DNA of 22,365 bases from a virus. Below are positions 7,986 to 16,489 of the stretch, in pieces. A program made the translations under genes and the position numbers. The notes beneath the pieces were generated by a model. The model had not been told where the DNA came from. It did not search any database and saw only the letters and a program-made list of their open reading frames with translations. Position 1 is the first letter of the stretch. Every line of letters begins with the position of its first letter. Location: UHGV virus genome UHGV-1636268. One strand, given 5' to 3'.

Positions 7986-8013
7986 AATACTTTCCTCTCA
8001 GTTTACTGTTAAA

Positions 8014-8190
8014 TTACTTATTAAACATTTTACCAGAACCACCACACATAGGGCAACATCCTGCCCTTATGTACCCCTCTCCATTACAGTAGTCACATTT
8101 TTTGTGCTCTGCAAAGTACTTACAAAGGAGGTAAACAAATACTGCTACACTACCAAGTGACAGTAAAATTTCTATCCAATATGCTTGCAT
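8014..8190 (-). CDS. Unannotated small ORF (58 aa): membrane-anchored protein with two DnaJ-type CxxCxGxG zinc-finger motifs
   Basis: Translated by hand: MQAYWIEILLSLGSVAVFVYLLCKYFAEHKKCDYCNGEGYIRAGCCPMCGGSGKMFNK. One hydrophobic helix, then CDYCNGEG and CPMCGGSG. ATG at 8190..8188 preceded by GAGGTGA SD; stop TAA at 8016..8014. Below the 60-aa cutoff of the ORF track. Confidence 0.4.
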   Translation of the reverse strand: MQAYWIEILLSLGSVAVFVYLLCKYFAEHKKCDYCNGEGYIRAGCCPMCGGSGKMFNK

Positions 8191-8507
8191 GACTCACCTC
8201 TCATATTCTTGTAAAGGATAAAGCTTCTGTCATGAACGATACTTGTAGATACTGCAAAGTTACTTTCAAGCATCTGTTTGTTTGGATTGTAGAAGCTTTC
8301 TTTAAACTCGTCAAGTGCAAATTGGTGATGTTGTGGAAGACCTTTTACACAAACCTTTATTGTGATTGCTGCTGCAACCTTGCCAGCCAGTTCTTCTTTA
8401 GCTGCTACTAAAATTTTGTTAAGAAACTTATGACCATCTTCATGCTTCTTGATGTTCTCCCAACGTTCTTCTAAGACAATGTTGATGTTCATTTCTTTGA
8501 TTTTCAT
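8172..8507 (-). CDS. Hypothetical protein (111 aa)
   Basis: ATG start with GGAG SD 7 nt upstream, directly after the terminator at 8525-8545; no recognisable motif. Confidence 0.5.
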   Translation of the reverse strand: MKIKEMNINIVLEERWENIKKHEDGHKFLNKILVAAKEELAGKVAAAITIKVCVKGLPQHHQFALDEFKESFYNPNKQMLESNFAVSTSIVHDRSFILYKNMRGESCKHIG

Positions 8508-8524
8508 AGTCTTCTCCAGAAATT

Positions 8525-8545
8525 AAAAAGGCTCCCGTAGGAGCC
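8525..8545 (-). terminator. Rho-independent terminator (GGCTCC-cgta-GGAGCC hairpin + T5)
   Basis: Perfect 6-bp stem 8530-8535/8540-8545; A-run 8525-8529 gives TTTTT on the minus strand; 16 nt after the NAMPT-like gene stop. Confidence 0.6.
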
Positions 8546-8560
8546 TCTTATCATATACTT

Positions 8561-10342
8561 TTAAAGCTGCTTGTCAATATTATTTCGAATATCACCAAGA
8601 GTTGTGTAACCGAACTGCTCAGAGTCGCTAAAGACTAGACGCAAAGCACAAGCTGGGTGTTCAAGTGCATCTGCAAAGCTCTGGAACCCATAGCCATCTA
8701 CAGCTTTCAGATTTTCACAATCCCACATAGGTGCTACACCACCAAAAGCAGACTTCTTAACACCACTATCTGTTTTAGGGTCTTTTGCAAGCATAATCTC
8801 TTTACCACCAATGCTTGCAAGAGTTGCTTTGACAGCAAATGCAAAGGTGTCACGAGTCATGTACTGGTAAGTGTAAGAACCTACACCAAACACTACGTTA
8901 GAGCTTGCAAAACCAATTTCATACAAACGCTTCAGTATTTCGTTTGCACGTTCCAACGTGATAGAGTCGCCATAAATAAGCCCGATATGCTCATCCAGTA
9001 CTTTAAAACCTTTAGAGTTGATAGTTCCTCCAAAGATGTTATACAGTGTCTTAATAGCTCCATCAATCTCCGCTACAGGACGTGTTACAACGTTTGCAGA
9101 GCCGTTGATGTAAGCATCTTTCAGCAACACTGTATCGGCTACTTCAAAGTCTTCTCTGTCAACAACCATTTCGTAGCCTTCTGACAGTAGCCATCCAGCA
9201 ATACCATAGTTAATGTTTTCAAGCTTCATGTTCAGGACAGAGTTCAGCATTGTATCACTTGCCTCTAGCTTGCTTAGGTGCTCGTAATAAGCCTTTTTAG
9301 CACACTCTAAGTGGATTGCTTTGTAACCTGTGACAATATGTACAGGGTCTCCAGAGTCAGGGCGAATTACCAGTTTACCATCACGTTCCATAATTTCTTT
9401 ACGGAGTGCTGGTAAGATTTCTGACACAGTTCTCCAGAAGTTATAAGTATCTGAAACAACACTTGCAATACCAGTTGGGTAAGTTTCTGTTAAGAAACGA
9501 CGGAAGGTTTGTAACTCACCTTTAAAGCGTCTTTCTTCTTCAATCAACTCATTACCACCTTCCCAAGCAATGTTTGCACACATTACAGAGTGCTCAGTGG
9601 CTGGTACAGAGCTACCAATATCAGAGATTGGGTAAGACTGTCCATAGATTCGTTTAGCCGTATACACAGCAGGGAAGCTATCAGTTCCTTTAAAGCTGGT
9701 TAAGTGGCCTACAGCGTTAAATGCGTCATCAGTAAAGCCGGACATACCACGCATAGCAAAGTCATGGCACTGATAAGGTAAATGTAAGTCGTTGTCGCAA
9801 GTAAGGTCAGCCCACTTCTTACAGATGCGTTTATAATGCAATGCAATAGTTGCAATGGTACAAGCCTTCCAAATCTCAGCAGAGAAAGCATCTTCCAGAT
9901 ACCCCGCTACCCAATGGAAACCTGAAACAGTGTTCTGGAAGACAATCATTGGGACACGCATAGGGACAACTGTACCTTCTTCTACCGCGTATACTTCAAC
10001 TGGTAGATAACCTAAGTCGTGAAGTGCTTCCCAATGCTCTCGACCGATAGCATCTTTACCCAGAACACCATTCATGACTTCTAAGATTTCGTCAATTGCT
10101 TCTTTTTTATCACGTTCAAAGAAAGTGGCGTTCCAGTGGTCTATCAAGTAATCTTTAACAAAACGTTGAATACCAAAAGCCACTACACCGTCAATTGCTA
10201 AAGGGCTGTTAAACCATTTGTCACTACGTGGTGTCAGGTTGAACATCAAGTATTCTGTTGCACTAGGGTACTGGTAAACATGGCCAGACTTGTAAGCATC
10301 CGCGTTTAAACCTGCTGGTACTGCATAAAGTGATTTAGTCAT
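8561..10342 (-). CDS. nadV: Nicotinamide phosphoribosyltransferase (NAMPT/NadV) family protein; candidate nicotinamide ADP-ribose transferase (Namat-type) given its Prs-like partner
   Basis: N-terminus NADAYKSGHVYQYP parallels the NAMPT N-terminal signature (human ATDSYKVTHYKQYP, recalled). ATG start verified. At 593 aa it is ~100 aa longer than the ~490-aa canonical enzyme. Lies directly downstream of the Prs-like gene. Confidence 0.8.
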   Translation of the reverse strand: MTKSLYAVPAGLNADAYKSGHVYQYPSATEYLMFNLTPRSDKWFNSPLAIDGVVAFGIQRFVKDYLIDHWNATFFERDKKEAIDEILEVMNGVLGKDAIGREHWEALHDLGYLPVEVYAVEEGTVVPMRVPMIVFQNTVSGFHWVAGYLEDAFSAEIWKACTIATIALHYKRICKKWADLTCDNDLHLPYQCHDFAMRGMSGFTDDAFNAVGHLTSFKGTDSFPAVYTAKRIYGQSYPISDIGSSVPATEHSVMCANIAWEGGNELIEEERRFKGELQTFRRFLTETYPTGIASVVSDTYNFWRTVSEILPALRKEIMERDGKLVIRPDSGDPVHIVTGYKAIHLECAKKAYYEHLSKLEASDTMLNSVLNMKLENINYGIAGWLLSEGYEMVVDREDFEVADTVLLKDAYINGSANVVTRPVAEIDGAIKTLYNIFGGTINSKGFKVLDEHIGLIYGDSITLERANEILKRLYEIGFASSNVVFGVGSYTYQYMTRDTFAFAVKATLASIGGKEIMLAKDPKTDSGVKKSAFGGVAPMWDCENLKAVDGYGFQSFADALEHPACALRLVFSDSEQFGYTTLGDIRNNIDKQL

Positions 10343-10389
10343 CTTTTAATCTCTCTCTCAAAATGGGTCTTTCAAGCCCCTATAAAGTT

Positions 10390-11271
10390 TCAATCAAGGT
10401 TTGCTACAGTAACTTGACTGTAATGTGTTAAGCCACGGTCTTTAGCTTCGCCTAAAGAGTTTGTAGTGTAAATATGGTCGATACCATTGTCAAGAAGGTT
10501 TTCAACATCTTTAGAGAAGATACCATGTGTTACATAAAGCTCTACACGTTTTGCACCTGCTTCACGTAGGTGTTTAGCTGCCTCTACGAAGGTTCGACCA
10601 CCATCACAGATATCATCAAGAATCATGACGGTTTTATCGGTCAAATCAACATCGTCAAGGATTCGCATACCAGTGATTTCTCCAGTCTTAAGATTTCGCA
10701 CCTTAGACATTGTGATATATGGTTTATCCACCTCTTTAGCAGTCTCTGCAATCTTCTTAGAAGCACCTGCATCTGGGGCTACTAAGTAATCAATCAGAGG
10801 GTCATTTGCGTAATGGACTGCAATCTCCTTTTGAGGAATACTCTGGAAGCAATTGAAAAGGTTATCTGGAACGTAACTATGAGGGTCAACTGCACAGACT
10901 GCATCAAAACCCATTGCATTAACCTGTTGTGCAAACACTTTCAAAGCTGCTGCATCACCTTTAAACATGTGACGGTCGTAACGTGCATTTGGCAAATAGT
11001 AAAAGATAGCAGTCTTCATAGCAAACTTATGAGGTACTAAATCATCAATTGCCTCTTTAGCAAGTGCCACAGCAAATAATGTGTCTTTGTCATAACCCTT
11101 TATAATCATAATCACGTTGTTGATGGATGATGCAGCATAAGCAGTAAAATCAACAAACTCTGGTGAAAAATGTCCACCAATCTCACCAGAAGGAAATTGG
11201 ACGATGTTAAACTCTTCTTCGTGAGTCCCTTTAGTTGGTGAATGAACTGTAACACGGATAGATGTTTTCAT
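10390..11271 (-). CDS. prs: Ribose-phosphate pyrophosphokinase (Prs) family protein; candidate ADP-ribose pyrophosphokinase (Adps-type)
   Basis: Prs-family motifs: YLPNARYDR (cf. E. coli YFGYARQDR), VCAVDPHS (cf. VLTVDLHA), and the PRPP-binding loop VMILDDICDGGRTFVEAAKHLREAGAKRV (cf. [28 protein letters not shown]). Start trimmed to ATG at 11271..11269 (GAGAGA SD); the track's 11286 start is TTG. Confidence 0.8.
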   Translation of the reverse strand: MKTSIRVTVHSPTKGTHEEEFNIVQFPSGEIGGHFSPEFVDFTAYAASSINNVIMIIKGYDKDTLFAVALAKEAIDDLVPHKFAMKTAIFYYLPNARYDRHMFKGDAAALKVFAQQVNAMGFDAVCAVDPHSYVPDNLFNCFQSIPQKEIAVHYANDPLIDYLVAPDAGASKKIAETAKEVDKPYITMSKVRNLKTGEITGMRILDDVDLTDKTVMILDDICDGGRTFVEAAKHLREAGAKRVELYVTHGIFSKDVENLLDNGIDHIYTTNSLGEAKDRGLTHYSQVTVANLD

Positions 11272-11282
11272 AGTTTTGTCTC

Positions 11283-11561
11283 TCAATCAAAGGTTACGTT
11301 TGTTACTGCCATTGCAGATTTGCATTTTACAGGGTCTACAACGTGGTAAAGTACACTACAGTTACCTGTGCTGTCTGGTACAGGTTTTACCCATTGATGC
11401 TTTATAGTTGGCTCTCCTAAGTCTTTGTAAGAACCATCTGTAAAGTTGTTTACCATCTCAAGTGCAATTGGTTCTGGAACATGACCACGTATCATGTACA
11501 TTTCACAACCATTACCACCTTCACTGACTAATGGTAAAATTTCCCACTTCTCTTTAGCCAT
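11283..11561 (-). CDS. Hypothetical protein (92 aa)
   Basis: ATG start; sits directly upstream of the Prs-like gene; no recognisable motif. Confidence 0.45.
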   Translation of the reverse strand: MAKEKWEILPLVSEGGNGCEMYMIRGHVPEPIALEMVNNFTDGSYKDLGEPTIKHQWVKPVPDSTGNCSVLYHVVDPVKCKSAMAVTNVTFD

Positions 11562-12069
11562 TGTAAGTTGCCCTATAAACTGTCTCGAATTTCAACAGGA
11601 GAGATATTGCCAAATCTGTATAGTTATTGTCAAGCACATCTGGCATATTATTTTTGATATATTTCTCTTGCTCTTCGTAGGTCATCTTAGGGATGCTTAG
11701 AAGACTATCACCTTGATTCTGATTATCAAGTTTAGTCTGGATAAACCAGTTTGCACAGTGATGCTCACCACCCTTTGTAACAGGTTTGTGGTGGCCTAAT
11801 GTGAAGGATTGACTACCTGTGTATCTGCAAAGTTTATTGAGCACTGTAATGGTGTTCTTCACAACAAAACATTCATATAGGTTATCTATAGTGTAGTGTG
11901 GGTAATAACGGAATAGTGCTCTTTCACGAGTACTTTCACGATTCCAGAGAATCATGTGATTGGAGTTTGAGGAGTCGTATTGGTGGTAGTCAATGAACTC
12001 TTGACGTTCCTCAAAGCTGAGTCTTAACACTGACATTGCAGCAGAACGTTTCAGATTTGACAGATACAT
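11554..12069 (-). CDS. Hypothetical protein (171 aa) with His/Cys-rich segment GHHKPVTKGGEHHC
   Basis: ATG start with GGAG SD 6 nt upstream, directly after the terminator at 12084-12107; possible metal-binding motif; family not recognised. Confidence 0.5.
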   Translation of the reverse strand: MYLSNLKRSAAMSVLRLSFEERQEFIDYHQYDSSNSNHMILWNRESTRERALFRYYPHYTIDNLYECFVVKNTITVLNKLCRYTGSQSFTLGHHKPVTKGGEHHCANWFIQTKLDNQNQGDSLLSIPKMTYEEQEKYIKNNMPDVLDNNYTDLAISLLLKFETVYRATYNG

Positions 12070-12083
12070 GTTATCTCCAAAAT

Positions 12084-12107
12084 AAAAAGGGAACCTTTAC
12101 AGTTCCC
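12084..12107 (-). terminator. Rho-independent terminator (GGGAAC-7 nt loop-GTTCCC + T5)
   Basis: Perfect 6-bp stem 12089-12094/12102-12107; A-run 12084-12088 gives TTTTT on the minus strand; 14 nt after the stop at 12121. Confidence 0.55.
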
Positions 12108-12120
12108 TTATAGTATCTGC

Positions 12121-12441
12121 TTACTGAGCTACTTTCAAGATTCTTGTGAATGGAATTTCACTTTCTTCCATTAACTCTTTAGTTTCTTTGGTAACTTTCA
12201 CAAAGTTATCTAGGCAGATAATCTTCTTATCTTTCTTGCTATAGGTCAATTTAACCTTTTCAATATCTTTCTCAGAGCTTTTCTCTTCATTGAAGAGTTT
12301 TACAGCCTCTTTGAATGGAAGATATGAGCCATCATTATCACTAATGAATCCTGTACCACAATAGTAGGAGTTATGCTCTCTAGCCATAAACTGGCACAGT
12401 AAGAAAATCTGTAATTTACGAGTGTTATAAACTTTGCTCAT
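12121..12441 (-). CDS. Hypothetical protein (106 aa)
   Basis: ATG-initiated ORF, 2 nt after the upstream stop; no recognisable motif. Confidence 0.5.
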   Translation of the reverse strand: MSKVYNTRKLQIFLLCQFMAREHNSYYCGTGFISDNDGSYLPFKEAVKLFNEEKSSEKDIEKVKLTYSKKDKKIICLDNFVKVTKETKELMEESEIPFTRILKVAQ

Positions 12442-12443
12442 GA

Positions 12444-12710
12444 TTATTTAGCCTTCTTATTACGTTTACGGTTACGAGCTTTCTTAGCTGCTCGTTTAAT
12501 AGCTGCTGCACCAGACGGACGGTGGGATTGTTTCTTACCACCTTTGCCACGGCCTACATAGATGTAAGGCTGCTGTTCAATTTGGCTTGTAAGAACCTGT
12601 GCAACCGCTGAAGCATCTACACCGACCTGCTTTCCAGTCATAGAAACAATTGCTGCTGCTTTTGCCAGTGCCTTCAAGAATCCAGCTTTCATATTACCTA
12701 AAATTCCCAT
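12444..12710 (-). CDS. Small basic protein (88 aa) with Lys/Arg-rich C-terminal tail; possible nucleic-acid-binding or internal virion protein
   Basis: C-terminus RGKGGKKQSHRPSGAAAIKRAAKKARNRKRNKKAK; ATG start with GAGAGAGA SD. Confidence 0.5.
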   Translation of the reverse strand: MGILGNMKAGFLKALAKAAAIVSMTGKQVGVDASAVAQVLTSQIEQQPYIYVGRGKGGKKQSHRPSGAAAIKRAAKKARNRKRNKKAK

Positions 12711-12806: not shown

Positions 12807-13292
12807 TCACTCTGCTCTCCACTGACAATCACCTTGCCACCCATACTCTTTTCTCCAGAGGTTTTGGTTATCAGAACCACGATATGGTTTAACTGTTGGT
12901 TTAGATGAATCATACTTACCATCAATCACCACGTCAACATATTTCATCACATCAAGGTGAATTTTTTCATGTAACTGAAAACCTGTCCAGAGCCAGATAG
13001 ATTTCTCTGGATAGATTGATTTAACCTTCTGACAAATCTTAGTGACTTCTCCAATGTTACGGTCATCCAATGGTTCTCCACCGAGGATAGACAGCCCACT
13101 TAAAGAGTCATCTTCCAAAAGTCTTAGAATGCCATAAAGGTTTGCATAAGTGAACTCTTTACCAGCATTAAACTTCCAAGACTCCCTGTTAAAGCAGCCT
13201 TCGCAGTGATGCTTACAACCAGCTACGAAGAGGCTTACACGAACCCCTTCACCATTAGCTGTATCAAATGGTCGAATCTCCATGTAATTCAT
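12807..13292 (-). CDS. nrdG: Anaerobic ribonucleotide reductase activating protein (radical SAM)
   Basis: Radical-SAM cysteine triad CKHHCEGC (CxxxCxxC) near the N-terminus; size (161 aa) matches NrdG; anaerobic reductase gene lies upstream in the same strand. Confidence 0.85.
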   Translation of the reverse strand: MNYMEIRPFDTANGEGVRVSLFVAGCKHHCEGCFNRESWKFNAGKEFTYANLYGILRLLEDDSLSGLSILGGEPLDDRNIGEVTKICQKVKSIYPEKSIWLWTGFQLHEKIHLDVMKYVDVVIDGKYDSSKPTVKPYRGSDNQNLWRKEYGWQGDCQWRAE

Positions 13293-14344: not shown

Positions 14345-16489
14345 TTACATAGAAACTCTGTTACGAATCTCAGCGATTTTTGCATCATTCATTCGTGATT
14401 CACCTTTAATCTTAGTCCATCCAAGATAACCACACACCCTGTTAATCACAGAGATATCATGTGAATGGCAAACCTCACATTCTTCAACATCAGCCTTTGG
14501 TCTGTTACCACAATGCTCACAGATTGCTAAGTCAAAGTTAAGTCCCTGATAAAAACCCTTCAACATCCCTCTGGTAATACAACTTTTAAGTGCTGTTAAG
14601 TTTTCTGGGTTAGCTACCCTTACATACTGGATTCTACCACCTCTACAGATATGGAAGAATGGCTCTTCTAAGTCCTGCTTCTCAAATGGTGAGATGTCTG
14701 CTGCAACATTCATATGGAAACTGTTTGTAAAGTATTCCTTGTCAGAGACACCTTTAATAACGCCAAACATATCTCTGAACTGTTTTAGCTGAGTTCCACA
14801 AAGTGATTCTGCTGGAGTGCCATAGACTGCATATAAGAAGCCATCTTCATTTTTAAACTCTTCAGTTTTCATGTTGATGTATTCCAGAACATCGTATGCA
14901 AAACTACAGCTTCCGACTTCATGAAGTCGTTTACCTTCAGCAAGAACAGACAGCTCATCAAGAGCAGTAACCCCAAAAGAAGCTGTGAAGGATTTCACAA
15001 TATCCCAACCAACCCTGTCAGTAGGTTTCTTAGTCCCTTTGTACAGACCACCTTGTGTGAATGCAAGAGGGTTAGAACTTGCTGGCATATTAGCAATCAT
15101 TTCGTAACGTTTCTTGTGGAAGCTGCGAATCATCTCTAGGTACTTATTAAGCTCTTTCCAGAAATCTAAACCATTCTCTTTAGAATACTGGTAAATCATT
15201 GGTAAGTTCAAAGATACAGCACCAATGTTAGCACGACCAACGTAGAACTCTTCCCCATCCTCATTAAGATATGGAGATAAGAAGGCTCTACAACCCATCG
15301 GCGAAATTACCTTGCCAGAACGCTCAAAAGCTTCTGCTACAGCACCATGACCAGATACACTTAAGAAATCTGGATACATCGCTTTAGAGCAACACTCTAT
15401 AGCTTTACTGTACAGGTGGCCTTGACAGATATTCTCATTATGTCTCTTCTGGTCATAAATATAAACAAGTTTAGGGAATACAACAGGTTTCTTGCTCTTA
15501 CCTTGTCCATTCATACGAACATCTAGGAGAGTACTTGCAATCATATATTGCAGTCGGTTATCTTCATTGGACATATCTGAGTCAAGTAACCCGAATGTCA
15601 AAGTTGTGAATGCAAAATCCCCACGGCTACAAGGTACAGTGTTTAGTTTCATTTCAAGTGACTGGAAACCTTGAGTCAGTTCAATCTGTAGCTGCTCCAT
15701 GACATAATTGTGGTAATGTTCTTTAGGAATACCATAAGATGCTGCTTTCTCAGCATGGTAGCGTAGAGACTTCTTAGCATACGGCACAAGTACCTTATCA
15801 ATCTCTGCTAAAGTAAAGCCACCAAATTGCTGTGCAGTTGCTGAAAGAACTACGTCACCAATAACCTGCAACGCTGACAGCACAGACTTCGGTTCACAAT
15901 ATTCGATGCCAGACATTTCAAAGCCACCTTTCAGGACTTTACCAATGTCAAACAGGCAACAGTTAATACCACCAAAAATCAGGTCTCTTAAATCATGGAT
16001 ATAGATAAAGCCTTTCTCAATGGCTTCAAGTTCCTCTGGTGTTAGATGATACTGTTTAAAGATTTCTTTAGTCAGGTAACCACGGATAATTGAACCTTTC
16101 GTAGAAATTAAACTGCTGTCAAAGTTAGCATTTTCACGGTCACCTAAGAAGAGTGTATCTTTAGTCTTCTGGTAGAGTTCATCCCAATTTTGAGCAACCT
16201 CTTTACGGTAATTTCTATATGTTGAGTAAGACTCATAAATCTCGTGATTGACTTCTGCCAAAGCACCCTCAACAATACTGTGAATATCATTTACCGAAAT
16301 TAGCAAATTATTCTGCTTAGTGGACTTTACCAGAATCCTCATAAATGCTGACTCAAGAGCTTGAGTAACATCTGGTGGAAGCTCTTTATAACCAACTCTG
16401 TTAGCTGACTTTGTGACTGCTGCTAAAACTTTTTTGATATCAGGTTCTTCAAGTGAGCCATTCTTTTTAATAATCTGTACTTTGTTCAT
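14345..16489 (-). CDS. nrdD: Anaerobic ribonucleoside-triphosphate reductase (class III, glycyl radical enzyme)
   Basis: C-terminal glycyl-radical motif RVCGYLG preceded by zinc ribbon CEHCGN...CEVC; N-terminal ATP-cone-like segment; 714 aa; ATG start with AAGGGG SD. Confidence 0.9.
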   Translation of the reverse strand: MNKVQIIKKNGSLEEPDIKKVLAAVTKSANRVGYKELPPDVTQALESAFMRILVKSTKQNNLLISVNDIHSIVEGALAEVNHEIYESYSTYRNYRKEVAQNWDELYQKTKDTLFLGDRENANFDSSLISTKGSIIRGYLTKEIFKQYHLTPEELEAIEKGFIYIHDLRDLIFGGINCCLFDIGKVLKGGFEMSGIEYCEPKSVLSALQVIGDVVLSATAQQFGGFTLAEIDKVLVPYAKKSLRYHAEKAASYGIPKEHYHNYVMEQLQIELTQGFQSLEMKLNTVPCSRGDFAFTTLTFGLLDSDMSNEDNRLQYMIASTLLDVRMNGQGKSKKPVVFPKLVYIYDQKRHNENICQGHLYSKAIECCSKAMYPDFLSVSGHGAVAEAFERSGKVISPMGCRAFLSPYLNEDGEEFYVGRANIGAVSLNLPMIYQYSKENGLDFWKELNKYLEMIRSFHKKRYEMIANMPASSNPLAFTQGGLYKGTKKPTDRVGWDIVKSFTASFGVTALDELSVLAEGKRLHEVGSCSFAYDVLEYINMKTEEFKNEDGFLYAVYGTPAESLCGTQLKQFRDMFGVIKGVSDKEYFTNSFHMNVAADISPFEKQDLEEPFFHICRGGRIQYVRVANPENLTALKSCITRGMLKGFYQGLNFDLAICEHCGNRPKADVEECEVCHSHDISVINRVCGYLGWTKIKGESRMNDAKIAEIRNRVSM

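Follow-up and report, generated by a model that had tools for sequence, protein, structure and literature searches.

The two small genes that precede the NARP1 enzymes in a Felixounavirus, encoding proteins of 171 and 92 amino acids (aa) and designated hereafter by their open reading frames (ORFs) as ORF171 and ORF92, are likely to be ordinary genes of the nucleotide-metabolism or early arm of the phage genome, the former HNH-like and the latter lineage-restricted, very probably transcribed with NARP1 but not functional parts of it. They are found in the UHGV virus genome UHGV-1636268, where the window, i.e. the whole stretch of DNA analysed (22,365 nucleotides, nt), corresponds to a segment of a Felixounavirus (FelixO1-like, Ounavirinae) in which every gene of the region is on the minus strand (Table 1). 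Positions 8000-12700 align along their whole length, at 93-96% identity, with dozens of Escherichia, Salmonella and Shigella phages. Relative to homologues at 70-90% identity, ORF171 and ORF92 are under purifying selection, with a ratio of nonsynonymous to synonymous substitution rates (dN/dS) of 0.04-0.17 (0.10-0.16 for ORF171 alone), and each matches end to end a PHROG lacking functional annotation, namely phrog_3500 for ORF171 (E-value 3e-89) and phrog_4726 for ORF92 (E-value 8e-60); both are therefore real genes.

The NARP1 context

The pair downstream, considered in an earlier note on this DNA as a Prs-like/NAMPT-like module of nicotinamide adenine dinucleotide (NAD) metabolism, is NARP1, an already known system composed of Adps and Namat and experimentally characterised in the close relative Bas63 (JohannRWettstein), whose genes bas63_0077 to bas63_0080 correspond to ORF171, ORF92, Adps and Namat. 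NARP1 was first identified in the two-gene operon formed by genes 79 and 80 of Bas63; Adps pyrophosphorylates ADP-ribose (ADPR) and Namat couples the resulting ADP-ribose pyrophosphate (ADPR-PP) with nicotinamide to yield NAD+ (10.1101/2024.02.11.579819). Deletion of both genes (Bas63 Δ79-80) renders the phage sensitive to SIR2-HerA (10.1101/2024.02.11.579819); the mutant still has genes 77 and 78, yet protection is lost. Besides, Adps and Namat from SpβL1 suffice for NAD+ synthesis in vitro and NARP1 expressed by itself counters several defence systems (10.1101/2024.02.11.579819).

NARP1 is a recently found counter-defence, and the additional genes of NARP1 operons have already given one new enzyme: the Macro-domain phosphatase Adpp is present in 15% of NARP1 operons and extends NARP1 to NARP1-AP (10.64898/2026.01.28.702374). 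With such a precedent, it is worth asking whether genes 77 and 78 of Bas63 belong to the pathway. ORF171 and ORF92 are located just upstream of Adps-Namat, a site that in other phages is taken by true accessories, Adpp among them, and they are probably on the same transcript as the two enzymes. Unlike Adpp, they are devoid of an ADPR/NAD domain, are not conserved with NARP1 outside the Ounavirinae and are lost independently of it. Searches against Pfam, NCBIfam and PHROG uncovered no Macro, RyR, Nudix or other ADPR/NAD-handling domain in either protein, and their consideration as Macro (Adpp) or RyR (RyDEP) proteins was discarded for want of any Pfam signal.

Distribution and natural alleles

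Homologues of Adps were counted in 1255 phage records, including Pseudomonas, Vibrio, Mycobacterium, Bacillus and other phages, compared with 429 for ORF171 (about 247 of them at 60% identity at least) and 231 for ORF92, so that neither gene is found in most of the records with Adps. ORF171 is adjacent to NARP1 only in Ounavirinae-like phages and is unlinked to it in Stephanstirmvirinae; in the Justusliebigvirus JohannJBalmer, about 68 kb separate the ORF171 homologue (at 68.6 kb) from Adps (at 137.4 kb).

Among closer relatives, each of the three elements can be missing when the others are kept, and this independent loss is directly supported by natural alleles. Three metagenomic contigs (L009, L010 and L011) lack a 3.13-kb segment delimited by two copies of the direct repeat TTGCACTTGA, ORF171 remaining intact; the deletion runs from within ORF92, whose 3' part is lost, through Adps, Namat and the terminator into the 5' part of the downstream ORF111, and leaves an in-frame ORF92/ORF111 chimera of 80 aa. 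Identity to the window is about 93-95% for L011 and about 72% for the other two contigs. As judged from the sequences, the occurrence of the chimeric allele in two lineages diverging by about 25% indicates either that NARP1 has been lost recurrently or that the loss allele spreads by recombination. In the IMG/VR contig L030, exactly Adps-Namat is missing (2,764 bp) between the copies of another repeat, ACTATGAAAA, with ORF171, ORF92 and ORF111 intact. Conversely, ORF92 is cut to 9 codons in L025, where ORF171 and NARP1 are present, and in Salmonella phage S19cd NARP1 is kept but the 5' part of ORF92 and most of ORF171 have given way to an N6/N4 DNA methylase (L008:2855-3577; PF01555, E-value 8.5e-32). 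Altogether, NARP1, ORF92 and ORF171 appear from these alleles as separable cassettes in a hot spot of indels driven by microhomology.

The earlier note had suggested accessory roles for the two genes in the NAD module. This part of it does not hold up: relatives in which the genes are absent or unlinked, an outcome that the note itself had named as refuting, do exist, each gene is lost independently and the two enzymes suffice. The neighbourhood comparison it had advised likewise speaks against the idea, ORF92 being missing from other NARP1-bearing relatives and ORF171 being unlinked in Stephanstirmvirinae. None of the features by which a NARP1 accessory can be recognised was found, namely a recurrent association across lineages, an ADPR/NAD domain or co-retention with the enzymes.

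A probable transcription unit

ORF171, ORF92, Adps and Namat are probably co-transcribed as a single unit, because ORF171 and ORF92 overlap by 8 nt (ATGGCTAA), ORF92 and Adps are separated by 11 nt, no internal terminator was detected and the promoter-hairpin layout upstream is conserved. All four genes are on one strand, and the unit is flanked by terminators and preceded by a candidate promoter. The annotated start of Adps is the ATG at 11271; the ORF list extends the frame upstream to a TTG at 11286. The gap between Adps and Namat is 47 nt long and contains no significant hairpin (z -0.3). Within the interval, the sole other terminator-like match is inside Adps (11180..11160), weak and without T-run. 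Over the entire window, terminator-like matches number 16 for a shuffle expectation of 12.0 +/- 3.7, i.e. not above expectation; every strong one, however, lies between genes and on the coding strand, and the two hairpins flanking the unit are G+C-rich and intergenic.

Upstream of ORF171, the -10 element of the sigma70-like box directly abuts the hairpin and the start of transcription is predicted inside the left arm of the latter; a transcript initiated from this box would therefore not form that terminator. The upstream box, hairpin, T-run and GGAG ribosome-binding site are kept in Suspvirus, Mooglevirus and a metagenomic lineage 72% identical to the window, where the -10 reads TATGAT, which is a better match. 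In the Kolesnikvirus Roscha1 (L004:4915-4975), the layout of box and hairpin is identical with a different hairpin sequence. A literature search found no Felixounavirus transcriptome. The earlier note had grouped the same four genes between two terminators as one unit, possibly co-transcribed; all of these elements are located as it claimed, and the grouping fits both sequence and conservation.

As an observation in its own right, a promoter box placed directly 5' of a hairpin makes a compact terminator/promoter unit, the layout of which is conserved across Ounavirinae genera despite the change in hairpin sequence.

ORF171, a divergent HNH-like protein

From sequence profiles and a predicted structure, ORF171 is assigned to the HNH/ββα-Me superfamily as a highly divergent member, which is the first superfamily assignment for phrog_3500. 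The assignment is made because five independent lines of evidence concur, namely PHROG matches, profile searching, profile-profile alignment with hhalign, an AlphaFold2 (AF2) model and structural searching with Foldseek. Firstly, between 2 and 7 of the 26 ORF171 family members match each of four PHROG families of HNH endonucleases (best E-value 2.4e-5). Secondly, when the family profile was searched against 1.84 billion representative proteins, only 14 clusters (defined at 50% identity) were retrieved at an E-value of at most 1e-10, all of 160-190 aa; the next matches were four proteins (P0078-P0081; E-values 1.5e-4 to 6e-4, over the ββα region) that match the Pfam HNH family PF01844, three of them (P0078-P0080) above the gathering score. 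Thirdly, hhalign of the ORF171 family against one of these Pfam-HNH proteins (P0080) gave a probability of 96.6% and an E-value of 6e-10 over the ββα region, pairing TLGHHKPVTKGGEHHCANWFIQTKLDNQNQGD with TLEHVIPLARGGQHHPNNWGLAHRRCNTEKGD in such a way that H93, N107 and N116 fall on EH...N...N. Fourthly, the AF2 model (predicted local distance difference test, pLDDT, 91.7; predicted template modelling score, pTM, 0.88) has strands at residues 89-93 and 108-112 followed by a helix at 113-119. Lastly, in a Foldseek search of BFVD, the matches outside the family are mostly annotated as HNH endonucleases, with short cores superposing at a root-mean-square deviation of 1.3-1.6 Å. Scanned directly, ORF171 has no match above threshold in Pfam and NCBIfam and scores low against curated HNH models. 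Searching its profile against PDB sequences retrieved protein A repeats alone, through the repeated low-complexity stretch 'NAFIQSLKDD', and this match was rejected as spurious. A literature search combining Bas63 and HNH found nothing useful.

The spacing pattern of the core is H-x2-P-x3-GG-x5-N-x8-N. In an alignment of 26 family sequences, 24-96% identical to the protein of the window, residues G92, H93, H103, N107 and N116 are invariant. The motif GHHKPVTKGGEHHC (residues 92-105), singled out in the earlier note as rich in His and Cys and possibly metal-binding, overlaps this core. Metal binding is sustained insofar as the motif belongs to the HNH/ββα-Me metal-finger core, but the motif is not a His/Cys cluster, as H94, H104 and C105 vary across the 26 sequences and H93 and H103 are its only conserved His/Cys residues. 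Structure prediction and fold search, which had been proposed as a check, were run for ORF171 and point to the ββα core and to matches that are mostly HNH endonucleases.

ORF171 resembles the HNH superfamily (PF01844) in its strand-strand-helix core, its catalytic-type His, its structural Asn and its helix Asn. On such grounds a nuclease role is likely: carried by a small helical protein, a core with His93 as catalytic-type residue, Asn107 as structural residue and Asn116 as metal ligand would bind one divalent metal via Asn116, and the metal-bound protein would then cut or nick nucleic acid in the service of phage DNA/nucleotide metabolism.

Inheritance and genomic setting of ORF171

The identity of ORF171 tracks that of the genome carrying it, with 88-98% in Felixounavirus, 71-78% in Mooglevirus and Suspvirus and 35-52% in Kolesnikvirus-like phages, and the gene is at the same site in 29 out of 29 Felixouna-, Moogle- and Susp-like IMG/VR loci (L017-L045). 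Synteny being thus directly supported, ORF171 is, as far as sequence comparison tells, a fixed, vertically inherited and non-mobile gene. That it could instead be a free-standing HNH homing endonuclease, i.e. a selfish mobile gene settled beside NARP1, is extremely unlikely. HNH homology, the many homing endonucleases of Felixounaviruses and the location in an indel hot spot would agree with this explanation, as would the label of 'putative HNH homing endonuclease' borne by the neighbouring DUF7390 gene in one GenBank record, a label unsupported here. A mobile homing endonuclease is however expected to be sporadic and to bring its own DNA-targeting domain, whereas ORF171 keeps its site in the relatives examined with a divergence matching that of the genome, has no NUMOD, AP2 or other add-on DNA-binding domain in Pfam and NCBIfam scans, and belongs to a family of about 14 clusters of uniform size. 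In addition, the sporadic endonuclease of the locus is a different protein. The HNH_3+AP2 homing endonuclease found in ULIM9 and phiSUSP1 is akin to ORF171 by its catalytic superfamily, size and genomic neighbourhood, but it is sporadic, whereas ORF171 is fixed, syntenic, diverging with the genome and without DNA-binding add-ons.

This HNH_3+AP2 endonuclease sporadically splits Adps/Namat (L002:3858-4349, L012:6688-7179, and also in L026, L029, L033, L034, L042 and L045) and is absent from the window. As for the DUF7390 gene, located at 12121-12441 in the window as the upstream neighbour of ORF171, it is also beside ORF171 homologues in the distant Ounavirinae-like contigs L014, L015 and L051, once with the order swapped, and a 1.4-kb metagenomic contig encodes an in-frame DUF7390-ORF171 fusion (protein P0002) that has lost the promoter together with the left hairpin arm.

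Regarding the wider setting, nrdD is a more consistent neighbour of ORF171 homologues than the Nampt gene considered below, being no more than about 5 kb away in 3 out of 3 clades examined. In the window, NrdD is encoded at 16489..14345 and its activase gene nrdG at 13292..12807, about 0.7 kb upstream of ORF171. The proximity to nrdD in three clades fits a role of an HNH-type ORF171 in DNA/nucleotide metabolism. In Phapecoctavirus and Justusliebigvirus, the homologues (38-41% identity) adjoin a UvrD-type helicase gene, e.g. in ESCO5 and outra. A loose analogy is offered by T4 endonuclease II (denA), a GIY-YIG nuclease that nicks host DNA and is encoded beside nrd genes. Both are small nuclease-type genes in an nrd/nucleotide-metabolism setting of a virulent phage, but denA is of the GIY-YIG type, whereas ORF171 is of the HNH type.

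ORF92 and the variable slot

ORF92 is a conserved, lineage-specific small α/β protein, which occupies a variable slot in three Ounavirinae genera. Its homologues (the 231 records mentioned above, and 14 clusters in a set of 5.8 billion proteins) are confined to Felixouna-, Moogle- and Suspvirus-like phages, and it has no match in Pfam, NCBIfam or PDB sequences. In Kolesnikvirus and in two Ounavirinae-like metagenomic lineages (L014 and L015), unrelated small ORFs occupy this slot, which is bounded by the ORF171 homologue and Adps, namely a phrog_2993 member in Roscha1 and ORFs of 44, 48 and 56 aa. The 98-aa slot gene of Roscha1 was considered as an ORF92 homologue and discarded (hhalign probability 0.3%, different PHROG). 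So was a relationship of paralogy between ORF92 and ORF111 on both sides of NARP1, hinted at by a MAFFT alignment including the chimeric P0065 (BLASTP E-value 0.85, hhalign 0.3%); the two share only the 10-nt microhomology at the breakpoint. Identity of ORF92 with aRad1, the aRES inhibitor, was also rejected (hhalign against an alignment of seven published aRad1 proteins, probability 0.2%), and six-frame translation of the window contains no aRad1-like ORF.

Several relatives carry further genes around NARP1. In Salmonella phage vB_CECAV_041 (L003:3375-5101), four ORFs of 126, 154, 131 and 151 aa lie between ORF92 and Adps; checked as possible NARP1 accessories, they have no Pfam matches and, being present in some relatives, are candidate cargo of the variable slot. 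A gene of about 114 aa lies between Namat and the ORF111 homologue in Bas63 (bas63_0081, L055:4509-4853) as well as in L021, L028 and L032, and is absent from the window. In the Kolesnikvirus Roscha1, an Erwinia phage, the NAMPT-like gene is closely followed by a gene for a ProQ/FinO-domain protein (L004:8568-9029; PF04352, E-value 3e-18), which has no counterpart in the window.

From this picture comes another explanation, rather improbable, according to which ORF92, and possibly ORF171, would be an independent anti-defence or host-takeover protein in a variable island that also holds NARP1, the island and not the pathway being what the genes have in common. The repeated indels and replacements among relatives (methylase, four extra ORFs, HNH endonuclease and post-Namat gene) go in this direction, as does the nature of ORF92, which is small, lineage-restricted, under purifying selection and adjoining a proven anti-defence module.

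Weighing the rival readings

Some observations weigh against the reading of ORF171 as an active nuclease-type gene of nucleotide metabolism and of both genes as bystanders of NARP1. The in vitro reconstitution was performed with the SpβL1 enzymes and not with the NARP1 proteins of Bas63 (10.1101/2024.02.11.579819). The adjacency of ORF171, Adps and Namat persists across the deep divergence of the Ounavirinae, down to 35-52% identity. In a Nanhuvirus-like clade of T4-type phages, four genes (about 1.8 kb) separate an ORF171 homologue from a canonical Nampt of 480 aa, and ORF171 may therefore be loosely associated with NAD genes. Finally, the position of the Asp, Glu or His metal ligand of most HNH enzymes is taken by the invariant Gly92, so the DH, EH or HH pair typical of these enzymes is wanting and ORF171 could be catalytically weak or inactive.

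The second and third points bear on the explanation by which ORF171 and/or ORF92 are accessories of the NAD module, for substrate supply, regulation or defence sensing, in analogy with Adpp. The tight spacing within a shared terminator-bounded unit would suit it, together with the order ORF171-small ORF-Adps-Namat held across Ounavirinae-like lineages, the nearby Nampt of the Nanhuvirus-like phages, the presence of NAMPT-family genes somewhere in the genomes of 3 out of 3 ORF171 clades and the precedent of extra genes in NARP1 operons. Synteny in the Ounavirinae, however, extends over the entire nrd...rIIA arm, and descent therefore accounts for the adjacency of ORF171 and NARP1. The Nanhuvirus-like Nampt has no Adps-like neighbour and is a single evolutionary instance in a hyperplastic region; a 231-aa gene preceding Nampt in this T4-like clade was considered as Adps-like and rejected. 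Added to the independent loss of each element in close relatives, the distance of about 68 kb in Justusliebigvirus, the skewed numbers of phage records, the lack of Macro, RyR or other NAD/ADPR-binding domains in either protein and the sufficiency of two enzymes both in vitro and in heterologous expression, the fact that the fold family of ORF171 works on nucleic acids makes an accessory function highly unlikely.

The last point concerns the possibility that ORF171 is a catalytically dead, HNH-like binder of DNA/RNA or protein acting as a regulator or adaptor, which is judged unlikely. Besides the invariant Gly, ORF171 departs from typical HNH proteins by the absence of zinc-binding CxxC pairs, and its mostly helical scaffold without PDB counterpart as well as its low scores against curated HNH models would be in line with a loss of activity. 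H93, N107 and N116 are nonetheless invariant in 26 out of 26 sequences, as expected of an active site. An acidic or His ligand before the catalytic His is common in the HNH superfamily but not universal; DRGH-type ββα-Me nucleases likewise carry a Gly before the catalytic His, and several of them use a single Asn ligand with Gly-His, which tempers the weight of Gly92 and counts against a dead enzyme. The preferred reading remains that of two ordinary genes of the nucleotide-metabolism or early arm, very probably sharing a transcript with NARP1.

Other features of the window

Scans of the window for Rfam families and tRNAs returned none. At 8014-8190 on the minus strand, an ORF of 58 aa combines a hydrophobic N-terminus with a CxxCxGxG...CxxCxGxG motif resembling the DnaJ-type zinc finger (CDYCNGEGYIRAGCCPMCGGSG); its counterparts in relatives are annotated as membrane or 'heat shock' proteins. 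In Namat (8561-10342), an insertion of about 85-110 aa relative to the canonical 480-aa phage Nampt, visible as one long BLASTP gap, lies around residues 340-423 and is possibly equivalent to the 'selectivity clamp' for ADPR-PP that published work discusses.

Table 1. Coordinates of the features of the NARP1 region in the window
Feature	Position	Strand	Remarks
ORF171 (= bas63_0077)	12069..11554	-	171 aa; phrog_3500; HNH/ββα-Me superfamily member, divergent, non-mobile
Predicted ββα-Me core of ORF171	11805..11713	-	residues 89-119: FTLGHHKPVTKGGEHHCANWFIQTKLDNQNQ; H93, N107, N116 at canonical HNH spacing
ORF92 (= bas63_0078)	11561..11283	-	92 aa; phrog_4726; small, lineage-restricted
Adps (Prs-like), first NARP1 enzyme	11271..10390	-	Pfam Pribosyltran/Pribosyl_synth; phrog_619
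Namat (NAMPT-like), second NARP1 enzyme	10342..8561	-	NAPRTase/NAMPT_N; phrog_448
Sigma70-like box TTGAAA-17-TACTAT	12138..12110	-	candidate promoter of the ORF171-ORF92-Adps-Namat unit
Intrinsic-terminator-like hairpin + T-run	12109..12087	-	9 bp, -12.4 kcal/mol, z -3.0; predicted end of the upstream nrdG...DUF7390 unit
Promoter-like box TTGACA-16-TATGAT	8577..8550	-	strong, 11/12; abuts hairpin 8549..8526, layout as upstream
Intrinsic-terminator-like hairpin + T-run	8549..8526	-	10 bp, -16.6 kcal/mol, z -4.7; predicted end of the four-gene unit
10-nt direct repeat TTGCACTTGA, copy in ORF92	11467..11458	-	breakpoint of the 3.13-kb NARP1-loss allele
10-nt direct repeat TTGCACTTGA, copy in ORF111	8320..8311	-	other breakpoint of the 3.13-kb NARP1-loss allele
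10-nt direct repeat ACTATGAAAA at Adps start codon	11274..11265	-	breakpoint of the 2,764-bp NARP1-loss allele
10-nt direct repeat ACTATGAAAA at ORF111 start codon	8510..8501	-	other breakpoint of the 2,764-bp NARP1-loss allele

Significance

A more far-reaching interpretation, very improbable as a whole, would regard phrog_3500 as a new non-mobile HNH-like branch on an otherwise unseen helical scaffold, tied to the contest between phage and host over nucleotides and NAD, with ORF92 as a lineage-specific anti-defence partner. ORF171 would then degrade host nucleic acid or a nucleic-acid component of a defence system, and such a role would explain its retention in the vicinity of nrd and NAMPT-family genes by large virulent enterobacterial phages of three unrelated clades. 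With the likelier reading of ORF171 and ORF92 as bystanders transcribed with NARP1, experimental effort on genes 77 and 78 of Bas63 as parts of the pathway can be spared, and the natural alleles devoid of NARP1, of ORF92 or of ORF171 provide ready-made genetic controls.

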